Shown here one piece after another: positions 10,752-10,822 of a DNA stretch of 12,310 nucleotides; within the stretch, counting starts at the first letter, position 1; each line of letters opens with the position of its first letter. The position numbers were made by a program, and so were the translations under genes. The notes under the pieces were generated by a model. That model did not search any database. It was not told where the DNA came from and saw only the letters and a list, made by a program, of their open reading frames with translations. Origin of the DNA: Methanobacteriota archaeon (GTDB taxonomy: Archaea > Thermoplasmatota > Poseidoniia > Poseidoniales > Poseidoniaceae); contig JABIGM010000015.1 of the NCBI GenBank assembly GCA_018650165.1, positions 1-12,310 of the forward strand, given 5' to 3'.

Positions 10752-10822
10752 TCCCTGCGATGATGAGCGCACTTGAGCGGACTGCTGTTTCAGTGACGAT
10801 TGATGGGCGAACTGAGCGGGGA
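10752..10822 (+). ncRNA. Archaeal box C/D 2'-O-methylation guide sRNA
   Basis: Box C AUGAUGA 10760-66, box C' GUGACGA 10793-99, box D CUGA 10812-15, degenerate D' probably CGGA 10778-81. C-to-D span is 56 nt. 7-bp terminal stem UCCCUGC(10752-58)/GCGGGGA(10816-22) with one G.U. The 12-nt D guide UUGAUGGGCGAA is complementary to the conserved 23S segment UUCGCCCAUYAA. Confidence 0.85.

Follow-up and report, generated by a model that had tools for sequence, protein, structure and literature searches.

A box C/D guide RNA gene of the sR2 family in a Marine Group II archaeon, with candidate methylation targets in 23S and 16S rRNA

Positions 10752-10822 of the window, by which we mean the whole 12,310-nt stretch of DNA that we analysed, are, as judged from sequence comparison, a real gene for a box C/D guide RNA, previously unannotated, from a Marine Group II archaeon. 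Its D guide places the sRNA in the known sR2 family, as a new and divergent member and an orthologue of Methanocaldococcus jannaschii sR2. Our main reading, to which we give a probability of about 0.5, is that this sR2 orthologue would serve the methylation of both 23S C2558 and 16S C1402, with RNP assembly, methylation and dual use all predicted from the pairing and its conservation. An earlier note on this DNA had proposed a genuine, unannotated box C/D sRNA at this place, and anatomy, conservation, covariation and uniqueness bear this out. The gain for annotation is a missing RNA gene of the Marine Group II archaea, an abundant uncultured lineage of the ocean.

Anatomy, conservation and gene status of the sRNA

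The sRNA is housed in a gap of 142 nt between an aldehyde dehydrogenase gene (9090-10727) and a gene for a PrsW-family membrane protease (10870-12252), and all three lie on the + strand (Table 1). The distance from the start of box C to the end of box D is 56 nt. The closing stem has 7 bp, including one U.G; its inner 6 bp (from 10753-10758) are conserved and the outer U-A is not. The 3-nt bulge of the K-turn is G10759-A-U, with the terminal stem in exact register. The UGAUGA of box C is invariant in all relatives, and the sole variant here within the genus is a change of G10759 to A, which retains a purine. Both D' (CGGA) and C' (UGACGA) depart from the consensus, and the D and D' spacers are 12 nt and 11 nt long. 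The C, C' and D boxes, the 56-nt core, the 7-bp stem, the K-turn register and G10807 as the fifth base upstream of box D (D+5) lie exactly where the earlier note had put them; the D' box (CGGA, 10778-10781) is absent from that note and was named in the present analysis. A TTAA(A/T) motif is found at a matching distance upstream of the sRNA in most members of the genus, and it is possible that this TGATAA/TTAA motif, 27-30 nt before the sRNA, is the gene's own TATA box.

Table 1. Features of the sRNA gene and its immediate upstream region, in window coordinates.
Feature	Position	Strand	Remarks
Possible TATA box, TGATAA	10725-10730	+	overlaps upstream stop codon; 27-28 nt before sRNA
Whole box C/D sRNA gene, about 69-71 nt	10752-10822	+	conservation borders within genus
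Terminal stem, 5' strand UCCCUGC	10752-10758	+	pairs with 10816-10822
C box AUGAUGA (RUGAUGA)	10760-10766	+	preceded by bulge G10759
D' spacer, 11 nt; guide probably degenerate or orphaned	10767-10777	+	variable in genus
D' box, variant CGGA	10778-10781	+	genus-invariant; CCGA or CUGA at equivalent place in relatives
D'-C' linker CUGCUGUUUCAG, 12 nt, possible 3-bp CUG/CAG stem	10782-10793	+	near-invariant in genus
C' box UGACGA	10794-10799	+	genus-invariant; UGAUGA, UGAGGA or UGAAGA in relatives
D guide UUGAUGGGCGAA, 12 nt	10800-10811	+	D+5 base is G10807
D box CUGA	10812-10815	+	genus-invariant; CUGA, CGGA or CCGA in relatives
Terminal stem, 3' strand GCGGGGA	10816-10822	+	covaries with 10752-10758

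We scanned the 1.75-Mb assembly with strict criteria (RUGAUGA, CUGA, an in-register stem of at least 5 bp, and C' and D' boxes at guide spacing) and obtained one site, the sRNA at 10752-10822, with none in three shuffled genomes. For a strict scan of an assembly that is 80% complete, this suggests that the genome of this mesophile keeps very few C/D guides. A relaxed scan without C' and D' gave 3 matches in the genome and 3, 3 and 0 in the shuffled genomes; as it performed no better than on shuffles, no C/D inventory was drawn from it.

BLAST searches against relatives found the sRNA in 34 of the 36 genomes of the genus, at 90-99% identity and with the boxes and guide conserved, as the earlier note had supposed of related genomes. 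The matches are bounded by the ends of the stem, and the flanks, including the upstream leader, are unalignable within the genus. One genus member has a stem GC changed to GU. Members of the order's second family have both stem strands changed together, with boxes and D guide retained. When 31 relatives drawn from several phyla were aligned, each of the six stem pairs (6/6) had compensatory, two-sided changes; the covariation score of the stem was reached by 0 of 500 shuffles, and slid controls were 32-54% paired as against 85%. A covariance model built from this alignment (R1) matches the window at 10753-10821 with 71.5 bits. The model recovers one copy from 124 of 151 sampled Thermoplasmatota genomes, or 90 of 101 among those of high quality, and all 151 of the 151 genomes of the Methanobrevibacter phylum are positive, almost always with a single copy. 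Copies in a sister genus are nearly identical to copies on records named Poseidonia sp., a likeness that would put the window in Poseidoniaceae, Marine Group IIa. An sR2 gene almost identical to these Poseidonia sp. copies also stands on a record titled Verrucomicrobiales bacterium ARS100 (L080), probably a contig of archaeal origin that was assigned to a bacterial MAG in binning.

The gene neighbours are constant within the family, with aldehyde dehydrogenase upstream and PrsW downstream, and different in other orders; because the neighbouring genes change between orders, we regard the sRNA as an independent gene and not as a UTR element. The genome also encodes the proteins of a C/D RNP: the fibrillarin and Nop5 genes are adjacent (contig C34) and L7Ae is encoded as well, all above Pfam cut-offs, confirming what the earlier note had expected of this genome.

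It could be argued that there is no gene here at all, and that the element is a chance motif or a 3'-UTR or terminator element of the upstream aldehyde dehydrogenase gene. The stop codon of that gene is just 25 nt before the element, RNA contigs extend out of the upstream ORF into it, and in the minimum-energy fold (z = -2.0) the leader before it (10745-49) is base-paired to the region of box D. Against this, the element is kept in two phyla amid different neighbour genes and its stem pairs covary, whereas the flanks, with the leader, are unconserved even within the genus, which also leaves a regulatory refolding of 10731-10811 unsupported; the full motif moreover occurs once in this genome and never in shuffles. 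We consider an origin other than a gene to be extremely improbable.

Membership of the sR2 family

Comparison of the sRNA with Rfam by cmscan gave weak matches, to archaeal C/D families only, with sR2 (RF01139) at the top (27.6 bits, E = 0.0086). The Rfam and Infernal check put forward in the earlier note thus names an archaeal C/D family as best match, but with a score below the RF01139 gathering score of 42 bits; in a whole-genome search the score was 18.6 bits. A relative with the same guide (L076) exceeds the gathering score, with 46 bits versus 42. The gene sequence of M. jannaschii sR2 is printed in the methods of PMC3001065, and all 12 of its 12 D guide bases, together with the CUGA, are identical to those of the window's sRNA. 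Since the D guide is identical to that of M. jannaschii sR2 and a relative passes the Rfam threshold, the sRNA is a member of sR2 and no new kind of RNA. The earlier note had called the guide RNAs of this lineage poorly charted; this one is indeed unannotated, but it is not new, being an orthologue of M. jannaschii sR2 and Methanococcus maripaludis sR106. The comparison also shows that the Rfam sR2 model misses most of its own family.

M. jannaschii sR2 shares with the window's sRNA its architecture, size class, terminal stem register and single-copy state, and differs from it in the D' half. The D' guide of M. jannaschii sR2 is unrelated to that of the window's sRNA, which is degenerate; its boxes have the consensus sequence, whereas those of the window's sRNA read CGGA (D') and UGACGA (C'); and its D'-C' linker has a few bases, in contrast to 12 nt. 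In vitro, assembly of M. jannaschii sR2 into RNPs was inefficient (PMC3001065). M. maripaludis sR106 carries an orthologous D guide in the same register, with the core GAUGGGCG (PMC4644070, Additional file 1); it differs from the window's guide at positions 1, 11 and 12, and its D' guide is like that of M. jannaschii and unlike that of the window's sRNA. The RNA-seq coverage of sR106 is very high (PMC4644070, Additional file 1), so the sR2 family is expressed in a mesophile. Dennis et al. 2015 give no predicted target for either sR106 guide (PMC4644070, Additional file 1); here and below, published targets are taken from the target table of that file.

Among the matches listed in a pattern scan, C/D sRNAs with the sR2 guide are found in Methanobrevibacter, Methanobacterium and Methanosphaera, and also in Thermoplasmata, Poseidoniales, Altiarchaeota and Iainarchaeota. 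The scan also returned many chance matches in bacterial coding regions, and we used it for named archaeal examples and not for counts.

Pairing of the D guide with 23S and 16S rRNA

The window's assembly is without a 23S gene, and 23S genes of the same genus were therefore used, one complete (G016) and one partial (G003). These two and five from the sister family read UUCGCCCAUUAA, which pairs with the D guide at 12 of 12 positions (11 Watson-Crick pairs, one G.U). When 300 shuffled guides were tried on 23S and 16S together, none paired as well. This stretch corresponds to E. coli U2554-A2565. Opposite the D+5 base is C2558 (G016 position 2524), which lies shortly past the A loop as base two of the H92 3' strand; this numbering is consistent with the A-loop positions in PMC4644070. 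The H92 sequence that the earlier note gave is correct by the two same-genus genes, and the pairing it predicted with H92, of 12 bp with at most one G.U, was found on the 3' strand of that helix. Its choice of 23S C2558 as the target holds in part: the D+5 base does point there, but this is one of two equally good targets, and 16S C1402 had been missed. A guide for this 23S site is already predicted in Methanopyrus kandleri, where the D guide of sR64, which shares its core with the window's guide, has the predicted target 23S C2832 (PMC4644070, Additional file 1), an alignment position equal to E. coli C2558. In our own pairing, M. maripaludis sR106 also fits 23S C2558, with 10 bp. As a separate observation, the 16S gene (at ~637 kb) and the 23S gene (at ~1,049 kb) of G016 are some 410 kb apart on one contig (C2), so the rRNA genes are unlinked in this genus.

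The second pairing is with the organism's own 16S rRNA at positions 1336-1347 (ACCGCCCGUCAA; E. coli 1398-1409). Guide positions 3-12 pair with 16S 1338-1347 (9 Watson-Crick pairs and one G.U), positions 1-2 are mismatched, and G10807 at D+5 is opposite C1340, which is E. coli C1402. By energy, 2% of shuffled guides match 16S as well, and the pair score of 9.5 lies near the mean of the shuffles; on its own, the 16S match exceeds chance only modestly. C1402 is 2'-O-methylated in E. coli, yeast, human and plants, with P. abyssi also among the listed cases (PMC11542601, tables 1-2). We saw no RsmI homologue in the assembly, which covers 80% of the genome, and no other guide in it for either 23S C2558 or 16S C1402.

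Several known guides place C1402 in the same way. Pyrobaculum calidifontis sR25 and Thermoproteus tenax sR35, which we liken to the window's sRNA by mode of action, are also C/D guides with C1402 at D+5, and their target is listed as 16S C1389* (PMC4644070). The D' guides of M. kandleri sR114 and Sulfolobus acidocaldarius sR122 have GGGCG cores that put the first C of an rRNA GCCC at the fifth position; no target is listed for the sR114 D' guide or for sR122 (PMC4644070, Additional file 1), and by our own pairing both fit 16S C1402, with 11 bp each. In these two RNAs the guide is in the D' half, whereas in the window's sRNA it is in the D half. The GAUGGGCG core is carried by sR106, sR114 and sR122 alike, and in M. 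kandleri the 16S and 23S specificities are divided between two RNAs (sR114 and sR64). The eukaryotic guides for the C1402 equivalent, which we take to be U43/snR70 (18S Cm1703/Cm1639), have it at D+5 as the window's guide does and are likened on the same ground, by mode of action. None of sR25, sR35 and U43/snR70 is known also to fit 23S. AtU43 is named in PMC11542601.

Within guide positions 3-11 the two targets differ twice: position 8 meets an A in 23S but a G in 16S, and position 10 meets a U in 23S but a C in 16S. No letters other than U8 and G10 can pair with both rRNA targets, so a guide of this kind would serve both sites. The predicted duplex energies of the guide as found are -17.2 kcal/mol for 23S and -17.6 kcal/mol for 16S; they become -17.1 and -12.8 kcal/mol with A10, and -12.8 and -19.4 kcal/mol with C8. 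The parsed Thermoplasmatota members, about 105 in all, comprise 87 with U8/G10, 15 with C8/G10 and 3 with U8/A10. The C8/G10 members come from seven families, with single members of three others, and U8/A10 is also present in at least three further named Thermoplasmata records among the pattern-scan matches listed. We looked for a compensating 23S change in the C8 lineages and found none, A2561 being kept in 7 of the 7 C8 genomes checked; since A2561 is unchanged in these, their guides fit 16S only. Given this, and the equal pairing with 16S, 23S C2558 is to be regarded as one of two equally good targets and not as the established one. A second sRNA of the complementary guide type was found in no genome searched with the model; second model matches in one genome proved to be unrelated C/D sRNAs.

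The pattern of conservation bears on both pairings. In the window's genus guide positions 1-11, counted from box D, are invariant and position 12 varies, and in the sample from the Methanobrevibacter phylum positions 1 and 12 are free to vary. U8 and G10 are fixed in about 60 Poseidoniales, with one exception, and in the 49 sampled genomes of the Methanobrevibacter phylum; the exception, G174 of the sister genus g14 (L245), has C8 and degenerate C' and D' boxes. A2, which pairs with 23S only, is fixed in Poseidoniaceae and in the 49 sampled Methanobrevibacter-phylum genomes, and G10 is required for 16S pairing only. As A2 pairs with 23S alone and G10 is needed for 16S alone, the simplest reading would be that both pairings are under selection in this lineage, although something other than 16S pairing might keep G10 conserved.

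An sR2-type guide might instead methylate the 23S C2558 equivalent in H92 only, with the 16S complementarity being incidental. The longest pairing is with 23S (12 of 12, 11 Watson-Crick and one GU, with 0 of 300 shuffles as good), the AA at guide positions 1-2 pairs with 23S alone, A2 is invariant in Poseidoniaceae and the 49 sampled Methanobrevibacter-phylum genomes, some relatives have A10 and fit 23S alone, and M. kandleri sR64 was predicted for exactly this position (PMC4644070, Additional file 1). If 23S were the only target, however, a change of the wobbling G10 to A would be free of energy cost (-17.2 versus -17.1), yet G10 is fixed in most sampled lineages. Many relatives, furthermore, have C8, which is mismatched to an unchanged 23S A2561, and since these relatives mismatch their own 23S, the 23S site alone cannot hold the family together. 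We think it unlikely, although worth serious consideration, that the 23S site is the only one.

The converse alternative holds that the real, ancestral target is 16S C1402 and that the 23S match is a by-product of alike rRNA segments. This would agree with the ribose methylation of C1402 in E. coli, yeast, human and plants and its listing for P. abyssi (PMC11542601), with a near-universal G10 that forms a Watson-Crick pair only with 16S C1407, with the perfect 16S match of C8 variants in at least seven Thermoplasmatota families, and with an assembly in which neither an RsmI homologue nor another C1402 guide was detected. It is harder to reconcile with the retention in this lineage of U8, a wobble to G1405, instead of C, and with the conservation of the AA at positions 1-2 despite their mismatch to 16S. 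The 16S pairing is also the shorter (10 bp, or 9 within positions 2-11), and A10 lineages lose it altogether. A purely 16S-directed guide is, in our judgement, distinctly improbable.

We favor the interpretation that both sites are used. As a tentative account of its history, to which we give slightly less than even odds, sR2 may be one ancient 'bilingual' guide whose U8/G10 wobble would give access to both sites and which, from the distribution of guide letters, would have been resolved in some lineages to C8 (16S only) or to A10 (23S only). Following the mechanism established for archaeal C/D RNPs, the C/D boxes at the termini and the internal C'/D' boxes would fold into K-turn and K-loop motifs, and these would bind L7Ae and then Nop5-fibrillarin. 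The 12-nt D guide would pair with rRNA, and fibrillarin would 2'-O-methylate the nucleotide opposite the fifth guide base upstream of D. G10807 would face the first C of GCCC at both 23S C2558, in the H92 3' strand, and 16S C1402, in the decoding centre. The D' half would have kept its protein-binding boxes and lost its conserved guide.

A different function is conceivable, in which the RNA binds C/D proteins and acts mainly as an rRNA folding chaperone or on some other, non-rRNA target, methylating neither site. In vitro, M. jannaschii sR2 was poor at forming RNPs of the active type (PMC3001065), its very abundant orthologue in M. maripaludis has no predicted target (PMC4644070), and the conserved D'-C' linker is unexplained. 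Nonetheless, constraint on the guide falls precisely on positions 2-11, both candidate targets have a C at D+5, and all four boxes (C, D, C' and D') are intact. In archaeal C/D RNPs of solved structure, positions 2-11 form the guide-target duplex. We hold that such a role to the exclusion of both methylations is very improbable.

If the bilingual reading is true, sR2 would be a core guide that is nearly universal in Thermoplasmatota, Methanobacteriales and Methanococcales, and would exemplify how a guide moves between targets by way of a dual-specific intermediate. A single guide has been retained here in a form suited equally well to two functional centres of the ribosome. Were both sites used, one 70-nt RNA would explain the archaeal counterpart of the bacterial and eukaryotic C1402 methylation, the same RNA would supply another methylation next to the A loop that is as yet unmapped, and the 16S-only and 23S-only variants would document target switching.

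The D' half, RNA libraries and other observations

The D' spacer is variable, with 8 of its 11 positions changing within the genus and a length of 9-11 nt across the order, and the D' guide differs between orders. Compared with the rRNAs, 168 of 300 shuffles were as good as the D' guide, and it has no match among 32 tRNAs. Judged by this variability, the D' half is probably a retained protein-binding module with a lost guide. The D'-C' linker is far better conserved than the adjoining D' guide, and a CUGCUG...CAG frame is kept across both Poseidoniales families; a CUG/CAG stem within it, with 71% of cells paired and outside the K-turn register, is weakly supported. Among sR2 orthologues of the Methanobrevibacter phylum the D' guide ACCCUAUGAGCU is almost invariant (one of 20 shown reads UCCC...) and is presumably functional there, because it varies so little. 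The Thermoplasmata share another conserved D' guide, with the core ACUAGAACCAG.

Marine metatranscriptome assemblies from three studies have the sRNA sequence in contigs; these come from standard libraries in which DNA carry-over is possible, and assembled contigs carry no information on RNA size, strand or level. The exact sequence of the window is found in two contigs, 10558-10821 and 10671-10821, from two runs of one study. Both begin within the upstream ORF and end cleanly at 10821, where the conserved stem is complete, which is a weak hint of an sRNA 3' end together with read-through from the upstream gene. Two further runs (X4 and X6) have relatives' copies of the sRNA with other flanks and are uninformative for the window's strain.

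Elsewhere in the window, a weak match to an S15 leader at 9254-9362 lies inside the aldehyde dehydrogenase ORF and, with E = 0.82, was taken as chance. Downstream of the sRNA, a TTGGTTTAGT-like motif at 10836-10850, about 25-30 nt before the PrsW ATG (10870), is kept in many genus members, unlike the rest of the spacer, and is probably the TATA box of a leaderless PrsW mRNA. Two large proteins are encoded on the - strand, a subtilase with a P-domain, bacterial TSP3 repeats and MopE-like metal-binding motifs (566-4027), and a GDSL lipase with bacterial TSP3 repeats (5764-8436); both are probably extracellular hydrolases.
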